From Candidatus Omnitrophota bacterium (GTDB lineage: Bacteria; Omnitrophota; Gorgyraeia; Gygaellales; Profunditerraquicolaceae), in assembly GCA_043809145.1 (NCBI GenBank), contig JAZDED010000034.1, positions 6,423 through 70,422 of the forward strand: DNA of 64,000 nt, in the 5' to 3' direction. Position numbers and translations under genes: made by a program. The first letter of the stretch is position 1; every line of letters starts with the position of its first letter. This document shows positions 19,826 to 58,588 of the stretch, piece after piece. The notes beneath the pieces were generated by a model, which was given only the letters and a program-made list of their open reading frames with translations, was not told the origin of the DNA and searched no databases.

Positions 19826-21196
<1,371 letters not shown>

Positions 21197-26803: not shown

Positions 26804-27526
26804 TTAAGTTCTGCTTTTAATATCCCTGGTCAAAATGATCGCCTCGGCAATCTCGCGCATAGACTTACGCGTGTCCATACTCTTTTTTTGAAGCAGTCGG
26901 TAGGCTTCAGAAGGAAGTATCTTGGCCTCCTGGGAAAGTATATCTTTAGCCCGCTCCACCAGTTTGCGGGTTAAAAGGGCTTCTTCAGCGCTGCGCGCGC
27001 GCAAGTCAAGCTCTGCATTTTCAATAGCTACTGCTGCCTGGTTGGCTACTACGCTTAACAAACCTAGTTCCGTATCGGTAAATTTATGTTTCTTAGAGGT
27101 GTAACAGTTGAGTACCCCGATTACCCTTCCCTTTACCGCCAGAGGGACACTGGCTAAAGAAACCAGCCCTTCTTTTTTAGCGATATCCCGGTTTAAATAA
27201 CGCTCATCTTCTCGAATATCCAAAATGCATTGGGGCTTATTTTCCTTAGCCACTATACCGGCTATTCCATTCCCCAATTTTATATTGGGTTTCTTGTTAT
27301 AGGCCTCGGATATAGACTGTGTAGCCTTAACTACCAGTTCTTTCTTTTCCGGATCCAAAAGCATCAAAGAACAGACCTTGGAATTCATTACCTCCGCGGT
27401 AATCTTAACTACCAGCTTTAGTAATTCATCCAGGTATAAGCCTGAAGTAATCAGGCTGGCTACCTTGGATATCCCCTCTATCTGTTTTAAATAAACTTCA
27501 TAACCCTGTTTCTTTACCTTGGGCAT
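26804..27526 (-). CDS. GAF-ANTAR RNA-binding antiterminator-type regulator.
   Basis: N-terminal GAF domain plus C-terminal ANTAR helix region (AKDILSQEA...MREIAEAI). Last gene of the asnC-aat-glnA operon. Confidence 0.75.
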   Translation of the reverse strand: MPKVKKQGYEVYLKQIEGISKVASLITSGLYLDELLKLVVKITAEVMNSKVCSLMLLDPEKKELVVKATQSISEAYNKKPNIKLGNGIAGIVAKENKPQCILDIREDERYLNRDIAKKEGLVSLASVPLAVKGRVIGVLNCYTSKKHKFTDTELGLLSVVANQAAVAIENAELDLRARSAEEALLTRKLVERAKDILSQEAKILPSEAYRLLQKKSMDTRKSMREIAEAIILTRDIKSRT

Positions 27527-27557
27527 TCTTTAAACTCTTCGCTTTTAACTTCTCGCC

Positions 27558-28916
27558 TTATAATATCGGCAGATACTTTTTTATCTCGTATTGGGTAACC
27601 TGGGCTTTGTATTCATCCCACTCCATCTTTTTATTGCGGATAAAGTACTCGAATAATTTCTCCCCCAGCGCCTCGCGCACTAATTTGCTATTTTCGGCGA
27701 TTTTTATAGCTTCTAACAGATCATCCGGCAAAGAGCTTATCCCGGCCAGCTCCCTCTCTCTTGCGGTCATATCATAAATATTATCATTTGCCGGGCCTGC
27801 CAATTTATAATTCTTTCTCATCCCTTCCAGCCCCGATGCCAGCATCACTGAAAAAGTCAGGTATGGATTGCAGGCCGGGTCTGGCGAACGATACTCAATC
27901 CTGGTTGCCTTTTCTTTGCCAGGCTTATACATAGGCACCCGGATTAATGCCGAACGATTCATCTGCGCCCAACAGATATAAACAGGTGCTTCATAACCCG
28001 GAATCAGGCGCTTGTAAGAATTCACCCACTGGCTGGTCACTGCGGTTATCTCTGAAGCATGTTTTAATAACCCCGCAATATAGGACTTGCCCACACTGGA
28101 AAGATGGTATTTATCATTCTTGTCAAAAAAAGCGTTCTTCTCTCCTTTTCCGCCGGAGGCGGATCCGCCTTTGGCGGAAAATAACGACTGATGCACGTGC
28201 ATACCTGAACCATTAATGCCAAACAAGGGCTTAGGCATAAAGGTAGCATAGACACCATTCTGACGAGCGACCTCTTTAACTACAAATCGATAAGTCATCA
28301 CATTATCCGCCATTTTTAAGGCATCATCATAACGTAAGTCAATCTCGTGCTGGCTGGAGGCAACCTCATGGTGGCTGTATTCAACAGTTATACCTAAAGA
28401 TTCCAGGGCCATAATCGTATTACTTCTTAAATCCTGGGCCACATCCAAAGGAGCTAAATCAAAATACCCTCCCTGGTCAAGCGGCTGTGGAATGTTGGAG
28501 TCTTTGAAATAAAAATACTCCAGCTCCGGGCCAACATAATAGGTATAGCCCAGTTCCTTGGCCTTAGCGATATTCCTCTTTAGAATAAACCTGGGGTCTC
28601 CTTCAAAAGGCTTGCCGCTTGGTTCATAAATATCACAGAACATCCTGGCTACGCTATAATTTTCTCCGGAACGCCAGGGAATAATTGCAAAAGTAGTTGG
28701 GTCAGGCCGGGCAATCATATCCGATTCTTCGATACGCGCAAAACCCTCAATGGAAGAACCGTCAAAACCCATCCCCTCTTCTAAAGCGCCCTCTAATTCA
28801 TTGATGGTAATAGCAAAGCCTTTGATAAAACCCAGAACATCGGTAAACCATAAACGGACAAATTTTACCTTGTGCTCTTTGGCTAACTTTAAAATCTCCT
28901 GTTTGGTCCTAGGCAT
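27558..28916 (-). CDS. glnA: Glutamine synthetase type I (short, GSI-alpha-like).
   Basis: 452 aa; GS beta-grasp and catalytic motifs (e.g. GSGMHVHQS). Confidence 0.9.
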   Translation of the reverse strand: MPRTKQEILKLAKEHKVKFVRLWFTDVLGFIKGFAITINELEGALEEGMGFDGSSIEGFARIEESDMIARPDPTTFAIIPWRSGENYSVARMFCDIYEPSGKPFEGDPRFILKRNIAKAKELGYTYYVGPELEYFYFKDSNIPQPLDQGGYFDLAPLDVAQDLRSNTIMALESLGITVEYSHHEVASSQHEIDLRYDDALKMADNVMTYRFVVKEVARQNGVYATFMPKPLFGINGSGMHVHQSLFSAKGGSASGGKGEKNAFFDKNDKYHLSSVGKSYIAGLLKHASEITAVTSQWVNSYKRLIPGYEAPVYICWAQMNRSALIRVPMYKPGKEKATRIEYRSPDPACNPYLTFSVMLASGLEGMRKNYKLAGPANDNIYDMTARERELAGISSLPDDLLEAIKIAENSKLVREALGEKLFEYFIRNKKMEWDEYKAQVTQYEIKKYLPIL

Positions 28917-32636: not shown

Positions 32637-33104
32637 ATGCTAAGAGATAAAAAAGTCAATACAGGCTTTACGCTGGTTGAAATTATGGTTGTAGTAGCAA
32701 TAATTGGTATTCTTACTGCTACCATAACACCTCAGGTGAGCGGTCTTGTGGATAAAGCTCGTAAGGCCAAAGCCCAGGCAGATGTAAACTCTATTACTGT
32801 CGGAATATTGGCATATGTAGACGATAATACCGGAACGTATCCCGGAGGCAATATCCGTATTGCCCAGGATGGGCAGTGGCTTAATACATATCTGATGGCA
32901 ACTGGAGCAGCAAAAAGGTATTTGCAGAAGAGAATTGAAAATGACCCCTGGAATTTAGCTTACCGTTTTTTTAGCTGCAGCAATTATGCCACTGGCCATT
33001 CTTTTGTTATGAGCCGCGGACAGGATAAAAGCTGTGGAGGTGGTTCTCCTTACCGCTGGGGTAATGCAGCTGTGGGGGATGATGTTGTTGTCTGGATAAG
33101 ATAA
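32637..33104 (+). CDS. Type IV pilin-like / GspG-like (pseudo)pilin, copy 1.
   Basis: Class III signal peptide with prepilin cleavage/methylation motif ...NTG|FTLVEIMVVVAIIGILTA. GspG-like region AKAQADVNSITVGILAYVDDNTGTYPG. C-terminal GDDVVVW. Confidence 0.8.
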   Translation: MLRDKKVNTGFTLVEIMVVVAIIGILTATITPQVSGLVDKARKAKAQADVNSITVGILAYVDDNTGTYPGGNIRIAQDGQWLNTYLMATGAAKRYLQKRIENDPWNLAYRFFSCSNYATGHSFVMSRGQDKSCGGGSPYRWGNAAVGDDVVVWIR

Positions 33105-33144
33105 ATTTAGAAAACATTTTTTCTAGATTTTATTACATACCAAA

Positions 33145-33180
33145 AGGCTGAAGACAAAATTATTCAGCCTATTTAATTTA
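33145..33180 (+). terminator. Weak intrinsic terminator after pilin copy 1.
   Basis: AGGCTGAA...TTCAGCCT stem followed by ATTTAATTTA. Confidence 0.35.
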
Positions 33181-33385
33181 TATGGTAAAATATAATAAAG
33201 CGATATGACAAATTTCCAGAAAAATAGTTTTATTATTCTAGCCATACTGCTATTAGCGGCAATTAATTCTTATTTTTATACCAGCCGCAGCCATATCTTT
33301 AAGGAAGCTGTTATAGCCCGGGCCCCTTCAGTTGTTAAAGCAGAAACGTCCCCTCTTCCATATATAAATCCCGGTTAATCGAAAT

Positions 33386-33414
33386 TTGACAACTATGATT
33401 ATGTAATGTATACT
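33386..33414 (+). promoter_or_regulatory. Near-consensus sigma70 promoter TTGACA-17-TATACT for cassette 2.
   Basis: Identical boxes and spacing to cassette 1. Confidence 0.55.
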
Positions 33415-33436
33415 TATGTTAATAGTGGAGGGATAT

Positions 33437-33835
33437 ATGGATTGGAAAGAAAATAAGGTTATAGGTCTAATCGCAGGTGTAATCTTAATATTTTCTATTA
33501 TATTGGTCATTATTTTGTTGCAGCCGAAAAAAATAAGAATGGCGTTTATGGCTGAGGGCGCAGATGAAGTTTTCGAGATGAATGTCCCTATAGGCACTCA
33601 AGGCCCAGTTGTTAATCCGAAGACAGGGGCCAGGGTTTTATATCCGGCTACAAAATTAAAATGCCAAAAGTGCGGCTGGGAAGGGTGGTTAATTAACTGG
33701 AGGTCAAGCTCAAAACCTCTCTCGCCTAAAGAGCTGGCAAAATTGTCTGACGAAAAGAAGTCGGCTAAAATAAAGTCCGGCTTACCTACTGTTTGCCCTA
33801 GATGCGGCTCTCCGCAATTAAGCCAGATGAAATAA
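33437..33835 (+). CDS. Small membrane-anchored zinc-ribbon protein, copy 2.
   Basis: MDWKENKVIGLIAGVILIFSIILVIILL... then ...KCQKCGWEGW...VCPRCGSPQ. The first 9 codons are almost nucleotide-identical to copy 1; the remainder is about 45% identical at the amino-acid level. Confidence 0.6.
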   Translation: MDWKENKVIGLIAGVILIFSIILVIILLQPKKIRMAFMAEGADEVFEMNVPIGTQGPVVNPKTGARVLYPATKLKCQKCGWEGWLINWRSSSKPLSPKELAKLSDEKKSAKIKSGLPTVCPRCGSPQLSQMK

Positions 33836-33865
33836 ATCTATTATAACTTCTAGAAGGTGGTTATA

Positions 33866-34351
33866 ATGAAAGACAAAGGCTTTACTCTTGTGGAAGTGAT
33901 GGTTGTGGTGGCGATTATCGGTATTTTGGCTACTACGGTTTTGCCCAACGCAACTAACTTAATCAATAAAGCAAAAATAGCAAAGGCGAATTCAGAGCTG
34001 CAATCCTTAGCAGTTGCTATCCTGGCCTATTACGATGACCGCAATAGCTGGCCAGGCGATATTAGTGGCAACGGCTGGAATGATAGCTGTTATATCGGAC
34101 GGACAGTGCGCGGCGGTTGCGGCTTTGGGAATGTTTGTCTTATGTCTACTACGTATGGCGCTACCAGGTATCTAAATAGAGATATTACTCAATCTCCCTG
34201 GGGTGGCGGCTGCGGGACATACCTCTGGAGATCAAGGCCTGATGGCTGGTTTGCTTTTGTCGCTTGTCTTGGCCCAGATAAGACGCGCCAAACCTGCTTT
34301 ACTACTGTAAGGGCACCAGCCGGTGATGACCTCGTAGTTTATTTAGAATGA
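33866..34351 (+). CDS. Type IV pilin-like / GspG-like (pseudo)pilin, copy 2.
   Basis: MKDKG|FTLVEVMVVVAIIGILATT. AKANSELQSLAVAILAYYDD; C-terminal GDDLVVY; several Cys in the C-terminal half. Confidence 0.8.
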   Translation: MKDKGFTLVEVMVVVAIIGILATTVLPNATNLINKAKIAKANSELQSLAVAILAYYDDRNSWPGDISGNGWNDSCYIGRTVRGGCGFGNVCLMSTTYGATRYLNRDITQSPWGGGCGTYLWRSRPDGWFAFVACLGPDKTRQTCFTTVRAPAGDDLVVYLE

Positions 34352-34948: not shown

Positions 34949-35785
34949 ATGGATATTGTAGTTGAAACCCGGGGATTAGGTAAAAATTTTACAAAAGTTA
35001 TTGCTTTGGCGGATTTAAATTTAACCTTAAAGCAAGGAGAGATCTTCGGGCTCCTGGGGCCAAATGGCTCAGGAAAAACCACTTTGATTAAGATCCTTCT
35101 GGGGGTCCTTTTTCCCACAAAAGGCAGCGTCCGGGTTCTAGGGCAGGACCCCAGGGATATCTCAATAAAATATCGGATCGGATTTTTGCCTGAGACTCCT
35201 CAATATTACCCTTTCTTAAATCCGGTTGAGGTTTTAGATTTCTTTGCCCGGCTTTTTAATATCCCCAAAAAATTAAGGAAAATAAGAATAGAAGAATTAA
35301 TTAATCTGGTCAGCTTATCGGATTATAGAAAGAGGAGATTGGGTGCTTTCTCTAAGGGGATGCTCCAGAGGATGGGCTTAGCCGTAAGCCTGATTAATGA
35401 CCCGGATTTTTTATTATTGGATGAGCCGACTGTAGGTTTAGATCCGCTAGGGGCATTCCAGGTCCGGGATTTATTATTAAAATTAAAGGCCGAAGGAAAA
35501 ACTATTTTGCTTTGCAGCCACTTGCTTTCGGAGGTTGAAAGCGCCTGCGACAAAATCGCTGTTCTTTATAAGGGAGTACTGGTAAAAGAAGGCCGGCTCT
35601 CTGAACTTTTGAAGAAAGATGATGAAATCCAGATTAATATTAAAACTAAAGAACCAGCTATCAGGGATAAAATCTTAGCCTTGATAAAAAACATTGAAGA
35701 AACCGAGGTGGATATCGGTTATCCTAATCAATCCCTGGATGAGTTATTCCGCAGTATAATTAAGGATTCAGAGAATGTTAAATAA
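34949..35785 (+). CDS. ABC transporter ATP-binding protein (ABC-2 / export type).
   Basis: Walker A GPNGSGKTT, signature FSKGMLQR, Walker B LLLDEPTVGLD. Confidence 0.85.
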   Translation: MDIVVETRGLGKNFTKVIALADLNLTLKQGEIFGLLGPNGSGKTTLIKILLGVLFPTKGSVRVLGQDPRDISIKYRIGFLPETPQYYPFLNPVEVLDFFARLFNIPKKLRKIRIEELINLVSLSDYRKRRLGAFSKGMLQRMGLAVSLINDPDFLLLDEPTVGLDPLGAFQVRDLLLKLKAEGKTILLCSHLLSEVESACDKIAVLYKGVLVKEGRLSELLKKDDEIQINIKTKEPAIRDKILALIKNIEETEVDIGYPNQSLDELFRSIIKDSENVK

Positions 35786-36545
35786 GGTTTGGGCAATAAC
35801 CATAAATACTTTTAAAGAGGCAATCCGCCGTAAGATCCTCTATGTGTTTTTATTTTCTGCCATAGGCATTATTTTCGTTGGCCGCTTCTTTAACTTTTTA
35901 TCTCCTTCAAACGAAACAAAAATCGCTATTGATATGGGCCTGGCCGGTATTCTTTTTTTTGGGGCCCTTATCGCAATATTTTCCTGCGGGGAGCTGATTC
36001 CCCGGGAGATAGAAAAGCAGACTATCATTACTCTTTTAAGCAAACCAATAAAAAGGATTGAATTTTTGGCAGGTAAATTTCTGGGCGGTTTTCTTTTGGT
36101 ATTTGTGAATTTTCTTTTAATGTCGATTGTATTCCTGGTGATAATTTATTTCAAGGAAAAAACAGTCTCAATAGACCTGGTTAAAGCGCTTTTGCTTACC
36201 TTCTGGGAGCTAATAGTTTTATCTTCGATTGCCGTATGCCTATCTATCTTAAGCTCAACAGTAGCTTTTAACGTAACCGTTACCTTTTCTATTTATATCC
36301 TTGGCCATCTTACGGATTATTTTGTTCATATCGCTAAGCAAGCAGAATATTCGGTTATTTCCGTGTTGCTTATGGTAATTTATACCATAGTCCCTAATTT
36401 TAACCACTTTAATCTCCGGGATAAAGTTGTAGAAGGTTTCTTCATCTCCAATGCCCAAGTATTTGAGGTTTTTCTGTATGGTTTGGTTTATATCGCGGTT
36501 ATGTTAGGCTTATCTTTCCTTTTCTTTCAAGATAAAGAATTCTGA
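35775..36545 (+). CDS. ABC-2 family transporter permease.
   Basis: Six predicted TM helices; overlaps the ATPase gene by 11 nt. Confidence 0.65.
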   Translation: MLNKVWAITINTFKEAIRRKILYVFLFSAIGIIFVGRFFNFLSPSNETKIAIDMGLAGILFFGALIAIFSCGELIPREIEKQTIITLLSKPIKRIEFLAGKFLGGFLLVFVNFLLMSIVFLVIIYFKEKTVSIDLVKALLLTFWELIVLSSIAVCLSILSSTVAFNVTVTFSIYILGHLTDYFVHIAKQAEYSVISVLLMVIYTIVPNFNHFNLRDKVVEGFFISNAQVFEVFLYGLVYIAVMLGLSFLFFQDKEF

Positions 36546-37246: not shown

Positions 37247-37748
37247 AAAAATATATTTAATAGTTTTATTATTATCATTAACAGTGGCTATAGTTTTCTA
37301 CCCGGGAGGTAAATTGGCTAAAAAAGTAGATTTGGGCGAGGGAATAACCGTAAGTGTCCCGGGGAATTTCCCAAAGCACACCTTAAAGCAGGAAAGTGAT
37401 TTAAGGATTACCTCATTTAATATTCAGCCTCACGAAAAATCACTGAGGTTTATTAACTTTCTTGAGTTTATCGTTTCGGCAGATAAGCTGGATTGCCTAA
37501 AAAGGCTGCCTAAAGAAGGCTATGAAATCGGTAACACCAACGAAGAAAAACTTTTAATAAATAGCCAGAGCGTTATTTTAAAAACCATAGAACTGAAAAT
37601 TACCCATCCCTGCGGCTCAAAGGAAAAAGGTTTAATTTACGCCTTGGAATATTTTTGCCAACCTAAAGACAAATATATTTATCTTCTTACCTTTACTATG
37701 ACTAAAAATGGATTTTTGGATATCGCTAAAACTCTGAAATGTTATTAG
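37227..37748 (+). CDS. Hypothetical exported/anchored protein.
   Basis: N-terminal hydrophobic segment; no family recognised. Confidence 0.35.
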   Translation: MARSPNKKIYLIVLLLSLTVAIVFYPGGKLAKKVDLGEGITVSVPGNFPKHTLKQESDLRITSFNIQPHEKSLRFINFLEFIVSADKLDCLKRLPKEGYEIGNTNEEKLLINSQSVILKTIELKITHPCGSKEKGLIYALEYFCQPKDKYIYLLTFTMTKNGFLDIAKTLKCY

Positions 37749-38314
37749 AGAAGATCAGCACTGCATTGATTTTGGGTCTATCCGCCGAGAGGATTCTACT
37801 TTGCCCTTTTATGGCGATGGGCCTTTCGCTTTCTGACCGTGGGGGAGGCTTAAAATTTATTTTAGGCAGGTTAGCGGGAATCAGCCTTTTAGGCTTGTTT
37901 ATATCCATAATTGGCGTTCCTTTTAATATCCCTCCCTATATATTAGACGGAGTCTTTGGTTTGTTTCTTTTGGGGCTGGGGGTAAACGCGTTATTAAAAT
38001 CAAAACACCAACTTAAGCAGAAGAAATTTTCTAACGCCGGATTTAGTTTGGGTTTATTCAGAGGTATGCTTAATCCCGGAAGAAAGCTTGTTTATCTTTT
38101 ACCGCTTTTATGGGGGATAAGAGTTGTTGACGGCCTGGCGGTTTCGCTGGCCTACGGTTTAAGTTCTTCGGTATATCTTCTTCTGGGATTCTTTTCTGCT
38201 GAGCTCTTAAATAGGGTTTCGGCTTATCAAAAACAGATAAAATTAGCCGGGGCAATAATATTATTATTTTTAGGGGGGTTTTATATTTTTAAGTTCTTTC
38301 AAGGAAGATTATAA
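37739..38314 (+). CDS. Polytopic membrane protein (about 6 TM), unknown family; candidate metal/cofactor transporter.
   Basis: Hydrophobic throughout, with CPFMAMG in the first TM helix. Confidence 0.4.
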   Translation: MLLEKISTALILGLSAERILLCPFMAMGLSLSDRGGGLKFILGRLAGISLLGLFISIIGVPFNIPPYILDGVFGLFLLGLGVNALLKSKHQLKQKKFSNAGFSLGLFRGMLNPGRKLVYLLPLLWGIRVVDGLAVSLAYGLSSSVYLLLGFFSAELLNRVSAYQKQIKLAGAIILLFLGGFYIFKFFQGRL

Positions 38315-38315
38315 G

Positions 38316-39155
38316 ATGAAACTGCGAATATCCAAGCATCCATGTTTTGACGAAAAGGCCCATTTGAAATTTGCCCGCATCCATCTACCGGTTGCCAAAT
38401 TTTGCAATATCGGCTGCAAATATTGCATCCGGCTGTTAAATAAAACCGAAAACCGCCCCGGCATAGCTTCCCGGATACTTTCACCAAGACAGGCCTTGAA
38501 TAAAGTAAGAAGGATTATTAAATCTTATCCTTTGACTGTAGTCGGGATCGCCGGGCCCGGGGATCCCTTGGCCAATGATGAGACCTTTCAGGTGCTTGAA
38601 TTGATCAAAAAAGAATTTCCTAAGCTTATGAAATGTTTGAGCACTAATGGGTTACTGCTTTTGGATTATACGGATTTATTAAAGAAGTTAAATCTGGCAA
38701 CTCTTACGGTTACGGTTAATGCTGTTTTGCCGAAAACCGCCACCAGGATTTATGATTTTGTCGTCTGGGGCGGTAAAAAGTATTGCGGTATCCAGGGAGC
38801 AGAGATTTTATTAGCCAGGCAGCAGGCAGGAATTAAAGAAGCAGTAAAGCAGGGCATTGCTGTTAAAATAAATACAGTGCTTATCCCTGAGGTCAATAAA
38901 AAAGAAATACCCGCGATAGCTAAAATTTATGGTTCTTTAGGCGCCAAGATGATGAATATTATTCCTCTTATCCCGATTTATAGGATGGCTTCCTGCAAGG
39001 CGCCGGATTGTAATGAATTAAAGGATATAAGAAGCAAGGCTGAGAAATATATTTCGCAATTTAGGCTCTGCAAACAGTGCCGGGCCGATGCCGTAGGGAT
39101 ACCGGGGCTGCAGAGAAAAGATTTCTCCAGCCCTTCCGAATACTTCCACTTTTGA
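38316..39155 (+). CDS. NifB-like radical-SAM protein (minimal NifB core, no NifX-like extension).
   Basis: HPCFDEKAHLKFARIHLPVAKFCNIGCKYCIR...GIAGPGDPLAND...KCLSTNG...CKQCRADAVGIPG. This aligns motif for motif with the NifB radical-SAM domain (HPC, H, Cx3Cx2C, GIAGPGDPLAN, CLSTNG, CxxCRADAxG) as I recall it. Confidence 0.7.
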   Translation: MKLRISKHPCFDEKAHLKFARIHLPVAKFCNIGCKYCIRLLNKTENRPGIASRILSPRQALNKVRRIIKSYPLTVVGIAGPGDPLANDETFQVLELIKKEFPKLMKCLSTNGLLLLDYTDLLKKLNLATLTVTVNAVLPKTATRIYDFVVWGGKKYCGIQGAEILLARQQAGIKEAVKQGIAVKINTVLIPEVNKKEIPAIAKIYGSLGAKMMNIIPLIPIYRMASCKAPDCNELKDIRSKAEKYISQFRLCKQCRADAVGIPGLQRKDFSSPSEYFHF

Positions 39156-39248: not shown

Positions 39249-39758
39249 TTAAACCCTGCGGAAACCTATCGGCTTTTTGACAGGTAGCGGCGCAGGTTCC
39301 AGAAGTTGTTTTATGGCCTGGAAAACAATGGCAAACTGCCGGTCGTATTTTTTCTCCATCGCCTCAATTTTTCGCCTGAGGCCTGTATTGGTTAGCAACA
39401 TCCGGCGCAACTGAGTAAACGCGCGCATTATTTGAATATTGACCGCAATTGCCCGATTGCTATTTAAAACCCCAGAAAGCATAGCCACACCTTGTTCAGT
39501 AAATGCTAATGGCAAGTGAGGTGAAAATTTCAGGAATTTAAGGTGGTCGCAATTTGCGACCACCTCTTCTTTCTCTTTGGCAGTCAATTGAAACATAAAG
39601 TCTTCTGGAAATCTCTTTTTATTTCTCTTTACCTGCTCATTTAATCTTTTTGTCTGTACCCCATACAACAAAGCCAAATCACTATCTAGCATAACCTTCT
39701 TACCCCTGATAATAAAGATCTTTGTGGCGATTACTTCTATAGGAACTAATTCAGACAT
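39249..39758 (-). CDS. ORF6N-domain protein (phage/antirepressor-associated DNA-binding domain).
   Basis: IRGKKVMLDSDLALLYGVQTKRLNEQVKRNKKRFPEDFMFQLT matches the ORF6N consensus. Confidence 0.65.
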   Translation of the reverse strand: MSELVPIEVIATKIFIIRGKKVMLDSDLALLYGVQTKRLNEQVKRNKKRFPEDFMFQLTAKEKEEVVANCDHLKFLKFSPHLPLAFTEQGVAMLSGVLNSNRAIAVNIQIMRAFTQLRRMLLTNTGLRRKIEAMEKKYDRQFAIVFQAIKQLLEPAPLPVKKPIGFRRV

Positions 39759-52547: not shown

Positions 52548-53804
52548 ATGTCAAATTTTCGAATAATACTTAAAAACAGGGATTTTCTGCTCTTATGGAG
52601 CGGGCAGATCATTTCGCAAATTGGCGACCGGCTTAACCAGATGGCTTTGATTGCCTTTGTTTACCTGCGCGCTCCCGGGTCATCCATTGAAATAGCTAAA
52701 ATCCTCTCTTTTACCATTATGCCGGTATTCATCATCGGCCCTATCGCCGGCGCCTATGTGGACCGCTGGAATAGACGCCAGACAATGTTTACCTGCGATT
52801 TCCTGCGCGCTATACTGATCCTGTTTATACCTCTATTTCTATTCCACGCTAAAAGCCTAACCTGGGTTATATACCTGATTATATTTATAGTCTTTTCCAT
52901 CAGCCGTTTTTTTGTCCCGGCAAAACTGGCCATCATACCTGACCTGGTAAAAAAAGAAGAACTCCTCATGGCAAATTCCCTTATCAACACCACCGGCATG
53001 ATTGCTGCCATACTGGGATTCGGCATAAGCGGGATAATTGTAGAAAAGATCGGCGCTCAAGGAGGATTTTACCTGGATACCTTTAGCTTCCTGGTCTCAG
53101 GAACGCTAATATTTATGATCGCTAAAAGAACGGGCCTCTCCCTTAATCTTAAAAAAGTAGGTAAGGAATTCGTGGGCTCTATACGTAAATCTCTGTTCCA
53201 GGAAATTAAAGAGGGTATCCTCTATTTTATTAAAAACAAAGAGATCCGGCTTACCACGGGCATCATCTTCGTGCTCTGGTCAGCCCTGGGAGCGGTTTAC
53301 GTGGTAGCAATTGTCTTTATACAAGAATCCCTGCACTCAGCTACCAAAGATTTGGGCCTCTTAGCCATGTTCCTGGGCTTAGGGCTACTCTGCGGCTCTT
53401 TATTTTATGGCCGCTTCGGACAGCGTTTATCACAGTATAAAATAATATTTGTATCTTTAATATTAAGCGGTTTAATGCTCATTGTTTTTGCCCTGGGGAT
53501 CGAGCGCTACCCATCCCTATCGCTGGCGGCAACATTGTCTTTTGCCCTGGGTTTATTCATTGCTCCGATTATGATTGCCTCCAACACGATCATCCATAAT
53601 GTAAGCCATAACCATATGATGGGCAAGATCTTCAGCTCCCTGGAAATCGTAATGCATCTGGGATTCGTAATCTTTATGTTTGTAACCAGCTTCTGGGCAG
53701 AGAAGGTTAATCCTACTATTATCCTGGTTACAGCCGGCTTCATCGTAACTAACCTCGGCGTTATCAACCTTATTACCGACCGCAGAAAGAAATGGTCAAT
53801 TTAA
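52548..53804 (+). CDS. MFS transporter. Start moved to the ATG at 52548, downstream of the tRNA.
   Basis: 12 predicted TM helices; MFS-like motif around GDRLNQ. Confidence 0.7.
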   Translation: MSNFRIILKNRDFLLLWSGQIISQIGDRLNQMALIAFVYLRAPGSSIEIAKILSFTIMPVFIIGPIAGAYVDRWNRRQTMFTCDFLRAILILFIPLFLFHAKSLTWVIYLIIFIVFSISRFFVPAKLAIIPDLVKKEELLMANSLINTTGMIAAILGFGISGIIVEKIGAQGGFYLDTFSFLVSGTLIFMIAKRTGLSLNLKKVGKEFVGSIRKSLFQEIKEGILYFIKNKEIRLTTGIIFVLWSALGAVYVVAIVFIQESLHSATKDLGLLAMFLGLGLLCGSLFYGRFGQRLSQYKIIFVSLILSGLMLIVFALGIERYPSLSLAATLSFALGLFIAPIMIASNTIIHNVSHNHMMGKIFSSLEIVMHLGFVIFMFVTSFWAEKVNPTIILVTAGFIVTNLGVINLITDRRKKWSI

Positions 53805-55063
53805 AAGAAAATAAACACCGCACCGAACACAAGCAAATTGAATCAATCCCAGCGCCTAAAAGAGCTTATATATCATTGAATCAACAGCTTAAAAAAAGCT
53901 TTTCACCGCTGGTAAAAGCAGGTGACCAGGTACTTAAGGGGCAGAAGATTGCCAGTATTAAAGAAGGCATATATTCGGCTATTCACTCTCCCATATCGGG
54001 AAAGATCTTTTCTATCCAGGATTCCCCGCATCAGGTATTGGGAAAAGGCAAAGCTATTATTATCGATAATGATTTTCAGGAAAAAAGTGTTGCTACATAC
54101 CTACGCACACAGAAAGAAATCGATAGCCTGGACGCGCAAGAGTTACGCGCAATAATACGCGAAACAGGAATAGTCGGATTAGGCGGAGCAGGTTTTCCCA
54201 GTTATATAAAACTCACCCCCCCAAGACCAATACATACATTGATTATTAACGGCGCGGAATGCGAGCCCTACCTGACCTGCGATTACCGCATTATGTTAGA
54301 AAAGACCGAAGAAATAATCCTGGGCATAGGGCTAATTGCCAGGTGTTTAGGCGCAAAGGATATATATATAGGTATAGAAGATAATAAACCCAAAGCTATA
54401 GAAAAATTCAGGTCCAAGGGGCAAGGATTAAAAGTTAAAGTCTTAAAAAGCTTTTACCCGCAGGGAGGAGAAAAACAGATTATAAAGAATATAACCAATA
54501 ACGAAGTAGAGCGAGGGAAACTTCCTTTTGACTCTGGAGTAGTCGTACAAAACGTTGGGACAGCGCTATCCATTTACGAAGCAGTCTATCTTAATAAACC
54601 GCTTTTTGAGAGGGTAATGACCGTAACCGGGAGTTGCCTGGTTAACCCTAAAAATCTTAAAGTCTGTATCGGTACCCCTATTAAAGAACTGATTGATTTC
54701 TGCGGTCCACTTAAAGAAAATCCGGCAAAGATAGTCATTGGCGGCCCGATGATGGGCATCGCCCAAAACAATGTTATGACCCCGGTTATAAAATCCACTA
54801 CCGGAGTTATCCTCTTCAATAAAAAAGAGGCTCAAACCACGGATGAAGAACCTTGCATCCGCTGCGCAGCCTGCGTAAGGGAATGCCCGGTAGGGCTAAT
54901 GCCCTGCATGATAAATTTAGCTTCAATAAAACAGTTATGGCCGCAAGCTAAAGATTTCGGCGCTCTGGACTGTATTGAATGCGGATTATGCAGTTATGTC
55001 TGCCCGGCTAACCGCAGATTAGTTCAATCAATAAAAATGGCAAAACTAGAGGCAATTGTATGA
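53792..55063 (+). CDS. rnfC: Rnf complex subunit C.
   Basis: NADH-binding-like domain and two 4Fe-4S motifs (CIRCAACVRECP; CIECGLCSYVCP). Confidence 0.85.
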   Translation: MVNLKENKHRTEHKQIESIPAPKRAYISLNQQLKKSFSPLVKAGDQVLKGQKIASIKEGIYSAIHSPISGKIFSIQDSPHQVLGKGKAIIIDNDFQEKSVATYLRTQKEIDSLDAQELRAIIRETGIVGLGGAGFPSYIKLTPPRPIHTLIINGAECEPYLTCDYRIMLEKTEEIILGIGLIARCLGAKDIYIGIEDNKPKAIEKFRSKGQGLKVKVLKSFYPQGGEKQIIKNITNNEVERGKLPFDSGVVVQNVGTALSIYEAVYLNKPLFERVMTVTGSCLVNPKNLKVCIGTPIKELIDFCGPLKENPAKIVIGGPMMGIAQNNVMTPVIKSTTGVILFNKKEAQTTDEEPCIRCAACVRECPVGLMPCMINLASIKQLWPQAKDFGALDCIECGLCSYVCPANRRLVQSIKMAKLEAIV

Positions 55064-55581
55064 AAGACTTGTTTAAATATGGACTCGTATTAGGGGTTAT
55101 ATGCGCGATAGCTACCGGCCTTCTGGCGGGAATGAACGCGCTTACTCAACCCAGAATTATTGCCCAGGCTGCCGAAGAACTAAATAATAGCCTAAAAGAA
55201 ATCCTGCCTGAAGCGGCTAGTTTTGAAGCAGTAACCCGTGAAGAAAAAATTATTTATTACAAGGCCTACGATTCACGAAAGAATATTATTGGCGCAGCTT
55301 TTAAGGCAAGCGCTAAAGGATACTCCAGTACCATTGAAACACTTGTAGGCATGTTAAAAAACGGCCAGATAACCGCGATTAAAGTAATAGACCAGAATGA
55401 AACCCCGGGTTTGGGAAGCCAAATAACAGATAAAGGCTTCTGCGGTCAATTCAGCAATAAAGGTATCTCTGGCCTATCAGATATTCATGCAATAACCGGA
55501 GCAACCATATCTTCCCGGGCGGTAATAGATTCAGTAAAGCAGAAATCACAGGAAATCGGGGAATTAATAAAAAATGAATAA
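55060..55581 (+). CDS. rnfG: Rnf complex subunit G (FMN-binding).
   Basis: Single N-terminal TM, ETPGLG and the covalent-FMN motif TGATISSRAV. Confidence 0.8.
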   Translation: MKDLFKYGLVLGVICAIATGLLAGMNALTQPRIIAQAAEELNNSLKEILPEAASFEAVTREEKIIYYKAYDSRKNIIGAAFKASAKGYSSTIETLVGMLKNGQITAIKVIDQNETPGLGSQITDKGFCGQFSNKGISGLSDIHAITGATISSRAVIDSVKQKSQEIGELIKNE

Positions 55582-56518
55582 GCCGTTAATAGTAAATAGC
55601 TGGCCGCATCTACACACCAAAGAATCCGTAAAACGTATTATGTGGTTGGTAACATTAAGCCTGGTACCAACCGGTTTTATGGGTGTGCGCATCTTCGGCT
55701 GGAATTCGTTATGGGTAATAGCCATTAGCGTATCCGCGGCATTAGCTACTGAGTTAATCTTTCAGCTTCTTACCAGAAGAAAAATAACCCTTGGAGATGG
55801 AAGCGCATTCCTGACCGGACTCTTATTAGCCTACAACCTGCCTCCGGAAATACCCTTCTGGATTCCCCTTGTAGGTTCATTCTTTGCTATTGCTATAGGA
55901 AAACAGGTCTTTGGCGGATTAGGGCAAAATATTTTTAATCCGGCCCTGGTCGGCAGGGCATTTTTGGTTGCTTCCTGGCCAAAATATATGACTAATTTTA
56001 CCCGGCCTTTTAATTATGACGCCGTAACTCAAGCCACTCCCCTGGCCCTGCTTAAAGAAGGAAGCCTAGAGCCTCACTTGTCATATTTGGACCTCTTTCT
56101 CGGCTATCGGGGCGGATGTATAGGAGAAGTTTGTATCTGGGCGCTTTTACTGGGAGCAGCATTTCTGCTTATTAAAGGCTACATCAGCTGGCACACACCT
56201 TTTACTTATATAGGCAGTGTGGCTGTATTCACTTATGCCTTCGGCGGAAAAACCGGATTATTTACCGGCGATTGGATATTCCATCTTTTAACCGGGGGAT
56301 TAATCCTAGGAGCTTTCTTTATGGCTACTGATTATGTAACCAGCCCTCTTACGGCAAAGGGACAGATTATATTCGGTATAGGTTGCGGAATACTAACCTC
56401 CGTAATCCGTATTTGGGGCGGATATCCTGAAGGAGTATCATATTCTATACTTATGATGAATGCTGCCGCTCCTTTTATTGATCGTTATACAAAGAACAGA
56501 ATATACGGATCAAAATAG
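55574..56518 (+). CDS. rnfD: Rnf complex subunit D.
   Basis: NqrB/RnfD polytopic protein; C-terminal LMMNAAAPFIDRYT. Confidence 0.8.
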   Translation: MNKPLIVNSWPHLHTKESVKRIMWLVTLSLVPTGFMGVRIFGWNSLWVIAISVSAALATELIFQLLTRRKITLGDGSAFLTGLLLAYNLPPEIPFWIPLVGSFFAIAIGKQVFGGLGQNIFNPALVGRAFLVASWPKYMTNFTRPFNYDAVTQATPLALLKEGSLEPHLSYLDLFLGYRGGCIGEVCIWALLLGAAFLLIKGYISWHTPFTYIGSVAVFTYAFGGKTGLFTGDWIFHLLTGGLILGAFFMATDYVTSPLTAKGQIIFGIGCGILTSVIRIWGGYPEGVSYSILMMNAAAPFIDRYTKNRIYGSK

Positions 56519-56548
56519 CTATTGGTTTAAAAGCCTGAATAATTAAAT

Positions 56549-57142
56549 ATGAAAAACTTAATAAAAGAGTTCGCAAAAGGGATTATTAAGGAAAACCCCA
56601 CTTTCGTATTAGCGCTGGGGCTTTGCCCAACCCTGGCTGTATCCGTATCGTTAATAAACGGTATCGGTATGGGCATAGCTGCCACTTTTGTACTGCTAGG
56701 TTCCAATATTATTATTGCCTTATTAAAAAATTTTATTCCGGCTAAAGTACGGATACCCTGTTTTATCGTAGTCATTGCCACTTTCGTAACCATAGTTGAA
56801 ATGCTCATGAAAGCCTATAGCCCGGCTTTAAACCGCGCGCTGGGAATCTATGTCCCGCTTATCGTAGTTAATTGCATGGTTCTGGGCAGAGCAGAGGCCT
56901 TTGCTTCCAAGAATTCAATGGTTAAGTCTTTCTTTGACGGTTTAGGTATGGGTATTGGCTTTACTCTGGCCCTGGCCCTTATTTCTGCCGTACGGGAAGT
57001 ACTTGGCGCAGGAAAAATTATGGGATATACATTAATTAAAGGGTTTAATCCGGCATTAATATTCAGCCTTCCCGCAGGAGCACTTTTGGTTATCGGCTTA
57101 CTACTGGGTTTTTTTAACATCTTTAAAGAAAGAAGAAAATGA
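56549..57142 (+). CDS. rnfE: Rnf complex subunit E.
   Basis: NPTFVLALGLCPTLAV N-terminus typical of RnfE/NqrD. Confidence 0.8.
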   Translation: MKNLIKEFAKGIIKENPTFVLALGLCPTLAVSVSLINGIGMGIAATFVLLGSNIIIALLKNFIPAKVRIPCFIVVIATFVTIVEMLMKAYSPALNRALGIYVPLIVVNCMVLGRAEAFASKNSMVKSFFDGLGMGIGFTLALALISAVREVLGAGKIMGYTLIKGFNPALIFSLPAGALLVIGLLLGFFNIFKERRK

Positions 57143-57747
57143 ACTTCTCTTATTTCTTAAGCATTTTTATTCAATCAGTTTTTGTCTATAATGTCGTCCT
57201 CTCGCGCTTTCTGGGGTTATGCCCATTCATTGCCATCTCCAAGGAAACCAAGCCTGCTTTTGCTATGAGCCTGGCTGTTACCTTTGTAATTACCACCTCC
57301 AGTATTATTACCTGGTTTATCTACCGCTTCCTGCTTATTCCTTTTAACCTGACCTATCTACGCACCATCTCTTTTATCTTGGTAATCGCCACATTTGTGC
57401 AACTGGTAGAAATGGTAATTAAAAAAATAAGCCCGCCGATGTACCGCCTGTTCGGAATCTATCTGCCTCTAATCACGGTTAACTGCGCTGTTTTAGGCAT
57501 AGCGGTGCTTAATAGCGATATGTTTTTTGCCAATAATAAAGCAGTTGCCGGAAGTTTCGCTTTTTCTGTTTTTCAAGGGATATGCGCGGGAATTGGTTAT
57601 ACCCTGGCAATGCTGCTTATGTCGGGAATAAGGGAAAGGCTGGAATATTGCAACGTGCCAAAAGCAGTCAGAAATTTACCTCTGGCTTTTATCATTGCTT
57701 CTATTATCAGTTTGAGCTTCACCGGATTTAACGGTTTCAAATTTTAG
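57139..57747 (+). CDS. rnfA: Rnf complex subunit A.
   Basis: NVVLSRFLGLCPFIAISK N-terminus typical of RnfA/NqrE. Confidence 0.8.
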   Translation: MNFSYFLSIFIQSVFVYNVVLSRFLGLCPFIAISKETKPAFAMSLAVTFVITTSSIITWFIYRFLLIPFNLTYLRTISFILVIATFVQLVEMVIKKISPPMYRLFGIYLPLITVNCAVLGIAVLNSDMFFANNKAVAGSFAFSVFQGICAGIGYTLAMLLMSGIRERLEYCNVPKAVRNLPLAFIIASIISLSFTGFNGFKF

Positions 57748-57796
57748 CCAGGTAAAATTTTAGTTCACCCTAAGAACCGCCCTTAAGATATACAAT

Positions 57797-58588
57797 ATGG
57801 AAATATTATTACCTACAATAATGCTGAGCTTGCTCGGGTTAATCTTCGGCCTTGGCCTGGCTTTAGCCTCAAAAAAGTTAGCGGTTAAAGTCGACCCTAA
57901 ACTGGATAAAATCCACAACCTTCTTCCGGGTACTAACTGCGGGGCCTGCGGAGAAGCGGGATGTTTCGGTTTCGCTGAGGCAGTCTTTACCGGAAAGTCA
58001 AAAATAGACGCCTGCCGCAGCTCTAGCGATGAAACTAAAGAAAGAATTGCCGAAGTCCTGGGAAGAAAATTAATCAAGGATATAAAAAAAATAGCAGTAC
58101 TACATTGTAACGGCGGCAACAGAGTAAAAAATAAATTTGTTTATGACGGCATAGCAGAATGCCGGGCAGTAAATTTAACCCTGGGCGGGCAAAAGGAATG
58201 CTTTTTCGGCTGCCTGGGTTTTGACACCTGCGCCAGAATCTGCCCATTTAATGCTATCAGCATGGGTAAAGACGGCCTGCCTCTGGTTGACAAAGAGAGG
58301 TGCCGTGCCTGTAATAAATGTGTTAAGGCCTGTCCAAAGAAATTATTCAGCCTCATCCCGCAAGCAGCTCTTGTCTATGTAGCCTGCCTCTCCCATGACT
58401 CAGGAAAAGATACCCAGACAGCCTGCCCGGTCGGATGTATTGCCTGCGGACTATGCCAAAAAGCTTGCAAATTCGACGCCATACATATCATTGATAATCT
58501 GGCAATAATAGATTATAATAAATGTACGTCCTGCAAGGCATGCGTATCAGTATGCCCAAGAAAATGCATATTAGTTCGTAGTTCATAG
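57797..58588 (+). CDS. rnfB: Rnf complex subunit B (polyferredoxin).
   Basis: N-terminal TM plus CGACGEAGC and multiple CxxCxxCxxxCP motifs. Confidence 0.8.
   Translation: MEILLPTIMLSLLGLIFGLGLALASKKLAVKVDPKLDKIHNLLPGTNCGACGEAGCFGFAEAVFTGKSKIDACRSSSDETKERIAEVLGRKLIKDIKKIAVLHCNGGNRVKNKFVYDGIAECRAVNLTLGGQKECFFGCLGFDTCARICPFNAISMGKDGLPLVDKERCRACNKCVKACPKKLFSLIPQAALVYVACLSHDSGKDTQTACPVGCIACGLCQKACKFDAIHIIDNLAIIDYNKCTSCKACVSVCPRKCILVRSS

Follow-up and report, generated by a model that had tools for sequence, protein, structure and literature searches.

The window analysed here, a stretch of 64,000 nucleotides from a Candidatus Omnitrophota bacterium (contig JAZDED010000034.1 of assembly GCA_043809145.1, positions 6,423 to 70,422 of the forward strand), carries an open reading frame (ORF) for a NifB-like radical S-adenosylmethionine (SAM) enzyme, which is, as judged from its sequence, a full-length minimal NifB of the archaeal type, and this assignment is regarded as sound. 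Its catalytic core is intact, the cysteine of its plug loop is missing, the gene is linked to the genes of a membrane protein and an exported cysteine protein, and no nif or nitrogenase-like (NFL) genes are found beside it. The best explanation, held with about even confidence, is that a catalytically competent archaeal-type NifB makes an L-cluster-like product for a purpose other than nitrogenase and is coupled to a cysteine-protein module of the cell envelope.

In the Pfam scan of the protein, the Radical_SAM domain alone was matched (PF04055, E 4.4e-17). By the NCBIfam NifB model TIGR01290, positions 8-282 of 441 were covered with 282.6 bits (E 5e-84), at a curated equivalog cut-off of 343.65 bits. 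A score below this cut-off is uninformative because the model spans the bacterial NifX domain, which is absent from minimal NifBs; the proven minimal NifB of Methanothermobacter thermautotrophicus (Mth) reached 304.4 bits and the NifBs of anaerobic methanotrophic archaea (ANME) and Methanoperedens reached 280-299 bits, all below the cut-off, and the sub-threshold score was dropped as an argument against NifB membership. Residues 7-269 of the query were aligned without a gap to the structures of the M. thermautotrophicus minimal NifB (7bi7, 7jma and 7jmb; residues 15-277 of 7jma and 7bi7, E 3.4e-80), and the structure of the Methanothrix thermoacetophila NifB (6y1x) was matched with an E of 1e-77. 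The identity to the solved archaeal NifBs 7bi7, 7jma and 6y1x was ~53% over the full length. A preliminary description of this DNA, made from the sequence alone, had proposed an alignment with the NifB core over the whole protein, and the solved structures and TIGR01290 were indeed matched end to end; the motifs named there (HPC, CNIGCKYC, KCLSTNG and CKQCRADAVG) were all found again, together with GIAGPGD. The curation standard for NifB consists of six fingerprint motifs (HPC, Cx3Cx2C, ExRP, AGPG, TxTxN and Cx2CRxDAxG; Arragain et al. 2017), and all six were present in the query as H8-P-C10, C30..C37, E45-N-R-P48, A79-G-P-G82, T131-V-T-V-N135 and C252-KQ-C-R-A-D-A-V-G261, respectively. With these fingerprints, all the K-cluster ligands and no nif or NFL neighbours, the protein is rightly described as a minimal, stand-alone radical SAM protein of NifB type that lies outside a nif context.

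The ligands were mapped in MthNifB numbering, which was taken from PMC8179604 (Jenner et al. 2021) and PMC10114646 (a review from the Nicolet group). The bridging cysteine C18, the semi-conserved histidine H24, the K1 ligands H31 and C115, the radical-SAM (RS) cluster cysteines C38, C42 and C45 (CX3CX2C), the plug-loop glutamate E53 and the K2 ligands C260 and C263 correspond to C10, H16, H23, C107, C30, C34, C37, E45, C252 and C255 of the query, respectively, and are all conserved; the plug-loop cysteine C52 is lost and is replaced by Thr44. The earlier claim that all putative cofactor ligands are conserved therefore holds for the RS- and K-cluster ligands, H24 and E53 and fails at the plug-loop cysteine, which is also the only one of the NifB-specific ligands not found in the profile and structure alignments. 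Among the 120 closest database homologs, the RS- and K-cluster ligands, H24 and E53 showed zero substitutions. In a wider set of 199 sequences, C18, H31, C115, C260 and C263 were invariant and H24 was a histidine in 164, with Cys, Asn or Gln in the others. None of the positions conserved to at least 90% in 134 canonical NifBs was changed in the query clade, and only two positions (K35 and T74) were specific to the clade in comparison with these NifBs.

The plug-loop cysteine (C52 of Mth, equal to Mt C62 and Ma C63) was originally taken for a K1 ligand, and in the Methanothrix structure it was later seen to cap the SAM-binding iron of the RS cluster (PMC8179604, PMC10114646). In the query, no cysteine stands between C37, the last one of the RS cluster, and R47-P-G, as determined by a loop test that does not depend on alignment, and the position is V, T, I or A throughout the query clade. 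The loop reads '..DC[AV]NES-RPG' or '..[ND]KCE.-RPG' in canonical NifBs and '..LNK[VT]EN-RPG', free of cysteine, in the query and its ~45 closest homologs. When Cys52 was scored by the columns of the wider alignment, many canonical NifBs seemed to lack the cysteine; this was rejected as a register-shift artefact (the cysteine lies at +6 or +7), and the alignment-free test was used instead.

A second group of NifBs without the plug-loop cysteine was found in Bacteroidales, Lachnospiraceae, Planctomycetaceae and Bacillota, with the gene order NifB-like, NifX-like, NifH, NifX-like and two NifD/K-like genes (L035, L037, L039, L041, L058, L060, L064, L077-L080, L085 and L088); the Lachnospiraceae members include Eubacterium ruminantium and Butyrivibrio. 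A PALP (cysteine-synthase-type) gene adjoins the cluster in L037 and recalls the NFL systems for sulfur acquisition, e.g. Mar. As these cysteine-less NifBs sit in NifH/NifDK-type clusters, the loss of the plug cysteine is not diagnostic of function, and it was dropped as a marker of a non-nitrogenase role. These bacterial proteins share the family and its motifs with the query, as do the bacterial NifB, MarB and NflB maturases in general; unlike them, the query clade has membrane and periplasmic partners and forms a separate group in the tree. Among the stand-alone NifBs of archaea, too, there are some without the plug-loop cysteine (P0076, P0105 and P0114 of Helarchaeota/Promethearchaeota, and P0045 and P0050 of Hecatellaceae), and in L090, the single archaeal cysteine-less NifB locus checked, the membrane partner was not adjacent.

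The linkage to the partners is the distinctive feature of the gene. In every contig sampled, the homologs with 53-73% identity to the query were found directly after a membrane protein of ~180-200 aa, in wider neighbourhoods that differ from one another (pseudopilin/type II secretion system genes, a secretin/TPR/giant-protein locus, CRISPR-Cas and housekeeping genes). A hidden Markov model of the partner matched the ORF directly upstream of the NifB-like gene in 11/11 clade loci first sampled (E 1e-44 to 1e-85) and matched none of 80 other NifB loci of GTDB genomes at E<=1; these 80, among the matches listed, belong to relatives with at most 53% identity (including methanogens, ANME, Geobacter, Nitrospirota and Clostridia). 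In the reciprocal search of metagenome loci with the partner alone, a cysteine-less NifB-like gene came next in all 15 loci in which the identity of the partner homolog reached 45% and the downstream sequence was long enough to judge. In the non-redundant loci, the partner, the NifB-like gene and the exported cysteine protein were counted in 16/16, 16/16 and 13/16, respectively. The frames of the partner and the NifB-like gene often overlap across these loci; in the window the TAA stop of the partner lies 1 nt ahead of the ATG of the NifB-like gene, with AGGAAG 9 nt upstream. The adjacency and the overlaps are conserved, and the three genes are probably co-transcribed and translationally coupled.

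In a neighbour-joining tree, 24 core sequences of the clade were placed apart from canonical NifBs in 48/60 bootstraps, with up to four peripheral sequences allowed in, so that the clade is separate in the comparison with bona fide NifBs that had been proposed earlier. The named members are mostly Omnitrophota, plus one Victivallales metagenome-assembled genome (MAG) and one MAG labelled Altiarchaeota. The nearest canonical relatives of the clade are archaeal. Like the archaeal stand-alone NifBs (7bi7/7jma, 6y1x and the NifB of nitrogenase-free methanogens, which provides L-clusters for the activation complex of methyl-coenzyme M reductase (MCR)), the query has a single radical-SAM domain in a chain of ~280-300 aa without NifX, shares the same RS- and K-cluster ligands and fingerprints, stands away from nif genes and ends in an 'EYFH[FGA]' tail that is common to those of the 'NKCE' type. 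Unlike them, the members of its clade have bacterial hosts (Omnitrophota and relatives), carry Thr or Val in place of the plug-loop cysteine and always follow the DsbD_2-like membrane protein, which was found in none of the archaeal NifB loci compared.

The membrane partner is characterized by invariant Cys22-Pro23, 'GF.LG.FRG.LNPGRK' and 'SSS.YL', with C22 as the sole invariant cysteine. In its model (predicted local distance difference test score, pLDDT, 75), ~6 transmembrane (TM) helices are predicted in a 3+3 arrangement, with breaks in TM1 at Cys-Pro and in TM4 at NPGRK. The Foldseek matches of this model were weak (RnfE/NqrD-type subunits and CcdA, 5vkv; TM-score ~0.45, best E 0.078), and since nothing in the PDB was matched at E <= 0.001 they were treated as a hint alone. 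In the Pfam scan, TauE was matched with 19.9 bits, under its cut-off of 32.6; faint precomputed DsbD_2 matches were recorded for close homologs of the partner, and the distant member L114 reached 28.8 bits against the PF13386 gathering threshold of 24.9. A search of 1.84 billion representatives yielded 105 clusters of this family at E<=1e-3, which makes it a rare one. The NPGRK position (N112-P-G-R-K116) is the symmetry-related site of the second cysteine, where [ST]PC was found in 52/79 representatives of the wider family. Because most of the wider relatives keep this second cysteine, the partner is, on sequence comparison, assigned as a derived relative, with one Cys, of the DsbD/CcdA-like proteins that have two. 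It resembles the CcdA/DsbD_2 (PF13386) thiol-disulfide electron transporters in size (~190-220 aa), in the ~6 TM helices in a 3+3 arrangement with TM1 and TM4 broken and in the Cys-Pro of the first broken helix, and it differs from them in the replacement of the second active-site cysteine by Asn-Pro-Gly-Arg-Lys, in the rarity of the family and in a structural similarity below significance. With this replacement, a single subunit cannot work as a two-Cys disulfide relay. In P0154, P0155, P0156 and P0223, the central loop of the partner family carries inserts rich in Cys, His and Gly-Arg (e.g. 'HAGCDIECDNECHSRCGNC'), which suggest metal binding.

The exported or membrane-anchored protein, named 'p173', has an N-terminal hydrophobic anchor, an invariant PCG, a 'YFC' motif and a C-terminal 'KC', and a Mog1/PsbP-like fold is predicted for it; a homolog search with this protein gave two matches only. 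No fusion of the partner family to the exported cysteine protein was found among the long partner-family proteins. The proteins P0241, P0248, P0251 and P0252, which are two-Cys relatives of the partner, carry at the N-terminus a fused secreted domain of ~200-270 aa ('ICY.G..D.LY.EL..RGY'), which is unrelated to the exported cysteine protein. Loci with distant pairs of partner and cysteine protein (L113-L115 and L120; L108, L109, L116, L118, L124 and L125) are surrounded by an FGE-sulfatase-domain protein, TonB or TonB-dependent receptors, YtkA-like proteins and He_PIG-cytochrome c proteins; at a distance of 1-3 kb, four of them encode a NifB-like protein that stands alone and has the canonical plug loop ('DRKYCCVNES'), and the NifB-like ORF of L120 comprises 683 aa as called from the first start codon. 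These contexts point to the handling of metal, sulfur or redox equivalents in the envelope and single out no substrate.

According to the preferred explanation, the NifB-like enzyme would bind the [4Fe-4S] cluster of a radical-SAM enzyme together with the K1 and K2 clusters, and would fuse K1 and K2 in a SAM-dependent reaction to a carbide-containing L-cluster-like [8Fe-9S-C] species, a product which is suggested by the complete conservation of the catalytic core. This product would not serve nitrogenase and would call for a new acceptor. The enzyme would act as the cytoplasmic member of a module with the exported Mog1/PsbP-like cysteine protein and the one-Cys DsbD_2-like membrane protein, expressed together with this pair and probably linked to it in a physical or metabolic way, and it is speculated that the membrane/periplasmic pair would most likely move a thiophilic species (sulfur, sulfite, metal or reducing equivalents) between the envelope and the cytoplasm or, alternatively, would tether the enzyme to the membrane beside its acceptor.

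Several points weigh against this explanation. As SAM cleavage was retained and NifB-co synthesis was abolished when the plug cysteine and the loop glutamate were both mutated in an archaeal NifB (PMC8179604, citing Fajardo 2020), the chemistry of the cysteine-less query, or its gating, may differ. The role of the partner is suggested by weak signals of family and predicted fold, and the model of 'p173' has a pLDDT of 67 and was built on an alignment of three sequences. Distant pairs of partner and cysteine protein occur without an adjacent NifB-like gene, and the pair therefore has its own function. The tree was built by neighbour-joining only, with moderate support and fuzzy edges of the clade. 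No acceptor candidate is conserved beside the module, and the genes surveyed cover ~73 kb of one MAG, so a nitrogenase-like or other known acceptor may lie elsewhere in the genome.

Among the alternatives, a NifB scaffold with a different radical-SAM chemistry is given a lesser, though real, share of belief: with no plug cysteine to cap the SAM cluster, the enzyme might favour the 5'-deoxyadenosyl radical or might stop at a K-cluster-like [8Fe-8S] or S-methylated cluster, and it might give sulfur or methyl to the cysteine-bearing partners or act on a metal that they carry. A plug-loop mutation in an archaeal NifB shifts methyl transfer to the formation of 5'-deoxyadenosine with the loss of NifB-co synthesis (PMC8179604), the loss of the plug cysteine is uniform across the clade, the partners bear invariant single cysteines, the distant pairs stand in TonB receptor/FGE-sulfatase/YtkA-like/cytochrome c loci that suggest envelope metal or redox handling, and IsrB is an example of a NifB homolog whose role is still unclear. 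Against these points, all K-cluster ligands and the canonical invariant residues are kept, which is hard to explain unless both substrate clusters are still bound and fused; the loop glutamate (E45) is also kept, and Nif-linked NifBs without the cysteine exist.

It is improbable that the gene is an ordinary NifB, or a maturase of the MarB/NflB type, which serves a nitrogenase or nitrogenase-like enzyme elsewhere in the genome with the membrane module as a mere neighbour. The partner linkage in 16/16 loci, often with overlapping frames, argues against it, as do the absence of NFL genes within 8-10 kb and the place of the clade in the tree, apart from the bacterial NifBs with nif linkage; in bacteria, NifB homologs are stated to share their loci with nif or NFL clusters (PMC13474568), and a phylum-wide survey of Omnitrophota does not mention nitrogenase or nitrogen fixation (PMC10066038). 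For it speak the cysteine-less NifBs in NifB/NifX/NifH/NifDK-like clusters, by which the loss of the cysteine is compatible with Nif-type acceptors, the one Omnitrophota MAG that was reported with nitrogenase genes (PMC9391474), the frequent separation of archaeal nifB from nif genes (PMC13474568) and the extent of the genome examined, which is 73 kb. In the Pfam scans of these 73 kb (the 64 kb window and the next 9 kb of the contig), no PF00142 (NifH) or PF00148 (NifD/K/E/N) protein was found, by which the NifB-like gene is separated from any nitrogenase gene by at least 34 kb and the earlier statement that the 64 kb hold no nifH/D/K/E/N is upheld; no nif or NFL genes were found within 8-10 kb in 16 related loci, either. 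General Pfam scans of the window genes also showed no methanogenesis-related families, and MCR, McrC and Mmp7 were neither expected nor seen there. It is very improbable that a gene which came horizontally from archaea (e.g. the methanogen hosts or prey of Omnitrophota) persists here as a decaying remnant or without function. In dozens of lineages at 53-100% identity the frame is unbroken, and the ~60 invariant columns comprise all the catalytic residues; the gene order with the partners is kept across divergent contexts and the G+C of the gene equals that of its surroundings, against an archaeal-type sequence (minimal architecture, EYFH tail and archaeal nearest canonical relatives) and the predation of at least one Omnitrophota bacterium on Methanothrix.

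A wider extension of the preferred explanation is put forward tentatively: a third, bacterial branch of L-cluster use, found in Omnitrophota and a few relatives (the Victivallales MAG and the 'Altiarchaeota'-labelled MAG), would have an acceptor that is neither of the nitrogenase family nor the MCR activation complex, its synthesis or delivery would be coupled to the envelope by the one-Cys membrane protein and the exported PsbP-like cysteine protein, and it would possibly have come from archaeal hosts and be tied to host-interaction loci (pili, secretin and giant adhesins) of these nanobacteria. The module lies in the pilus/secretion and giant-adhesin loci typical of host-associated Omnitrophota. 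In a second subclade (L006, 10896-20870; L089, 11303-20873; L105, L107, L110 and L126), a giant ORF of >2,300 to >4,400 aa with Kelch, DUF2341 and Laminin_G_3 matches lies directly 3' of the module, and MerR, AAA ATPase, secretin and TPR proteins and a conserved Y1_Tnp-like gene lie upstream of it. Giant ORFs are considered as host-adhesion traits in Omnitrophota (PMC10066038).

The genes of the window are collected in Table 1. The NifB-like gene closes an array of densely packed genes that all run in one direction, in which neighbours overlap or are at most 21 nt apart. The neighbours had been described as membrane and transport proteins; membrane proteins and ABC genes are present, and the two genes directly upstream are not incidental but belong to the conserved module. 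The ORF6N-domain gene was also found in a second MAG with an identical locus (L002). Of the two nitrogen-assimilation genes that had been placed within 10 kb, glnA lies 9.4 kb and gdhA 17 kb from the NifB-like gene, so that the statement holds for glnA only; a link of either gene to the NifB-like gene was ruled out because they are on the opposite strand and in separate operons at 9-17 kb. With the GAF-ANTAR regulator beside glnA, and gltD-like, gdhA and carAB upstream on the same strand, this region is ordinary nitrogen-assimilation housekeeping and unrelated to the NifB-like operon. A complete Rnf-type operon suggests low-potential ferredoxin metabolism in the organism. By the Rfam scan, two tRNAs only and no riboswitch were found in the window, and the counts of a promoter and terminator scan of the window were no different from those of shuffled sequence.

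Table 1. Positions of the NifB-like gene, its array and other features in the 64,000-nucleotide window.
Feature	Position	Strand	Basis or remark
Three pseudopilin-like genes, head of the array	32637-34351	+	Pfam; prepilin N_methyl / T2SSG / PilW_C matches
Paralog of the exported Cys protein, 195 aa	34358-34945	+	sequence comparison; 'SCG' replaces PCG
ABC ATPase	34949-35785	+	overlaps permease; subclade-level synteny
ABC-2 type permease (PF12679)	35775-36545	+	overlaps ATPase; subclade-level synteny
TPR membrane protein, 233 aa	36545-37246	+	overlaps both neighbours; conserved solely in the subclade of the query
Exported/membrane-anchored Cys protein 'p173', 173 aa	37227-37748	+	GenBank version 144 aa, start 37314
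Membrane partner, 191 aa, ~6 TM, DsbD_2/CcdA-like	37739-38314	+	hidden Markov model, motifs, model
NifB-like radical SAM enzyme, 279 aa, minimal (without NifX domain), 'EYFHF' C-terminal tail, Thr44	38316-39155	+	ATG-to-stop ORF
ORF6N-domain protein (PF10543, E 1.8e-31)	39249-39758	-	Pfam; convergent with the NifB-like gene
glnA	27558-28916	-	separate transcription unit
GAF-ANTAR regulator together with glnA	26804-28916	-	
gdhA	19826-21163	-	separate transcription unit
DUF1846 protein, 506 aa	14164-15687	-	E 1.5e-159; adjoins a VTT-domain membrane protein
Rnf-type complex operon (RnfC, G, D, E, A, B-like)	53792-58588		complete

Before 2023, NifB was viewed as an enzyme of nitrogenase only. It was then found to be universal and essential in methanogens, nitrogenase-free ones included (bioRxiv 10.1101/2023.10.20.563283), and in the MCR activation complex McrC and Mmp7 were found to bind three L-cluster-like [8Fe-9S-C] clusters (PMC12176620). 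In bacteria, the NifB homolog MarB matures methylthio-alkane reductase and other homologs accompany NFL clusters; bacterial NifB is known solely from nitrogenase and NFL maturation, and the targets of NifB homologs are largely unresolved (PMC13474568, PMC12552129). The preliminary description had held that a NifB homolog with a use other than nitrogenase would be notable; this stands for the bacterial clade and its module, and is weakened by the precedents in nitrogenase-free methanogens, McrC/Mmp7 and MarB. NifB beyond nitrogenase is no longer new, and a bacterial clade without NFL neighbours and its three-gene module appear undescribed. No account of a NifB homolog tied to a module of membrane and periplasmic proteins was found in the literature, and the phylum-wide study of Omnitrophota (PMC10066038) mentions neither nitrogenase, NifB nor radical SAM enzymes.

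A well-defined bacterial clade that keeps the NifB core intact, lacks NFL neighbours and has obligatory membrane and periplasmic partners is a concrete, testable system, through which a new acceptor of the L-cluster might come to light, or a new supply route for cluster components, e.g. the unexplained source of the ninth sulfur in vivo. The natural plug-loop variants, with Thr or Val in place of Cys, are useful for the question of how NifB gates the binding of SAM. The clade also bears on the history of NifB transfer from archaea to bacteria, as the Omnitrophota include a predator of methanogens, and it hints at an undescribed use of carbon-centred iron-sulfur cluster chemistry in bacteria.

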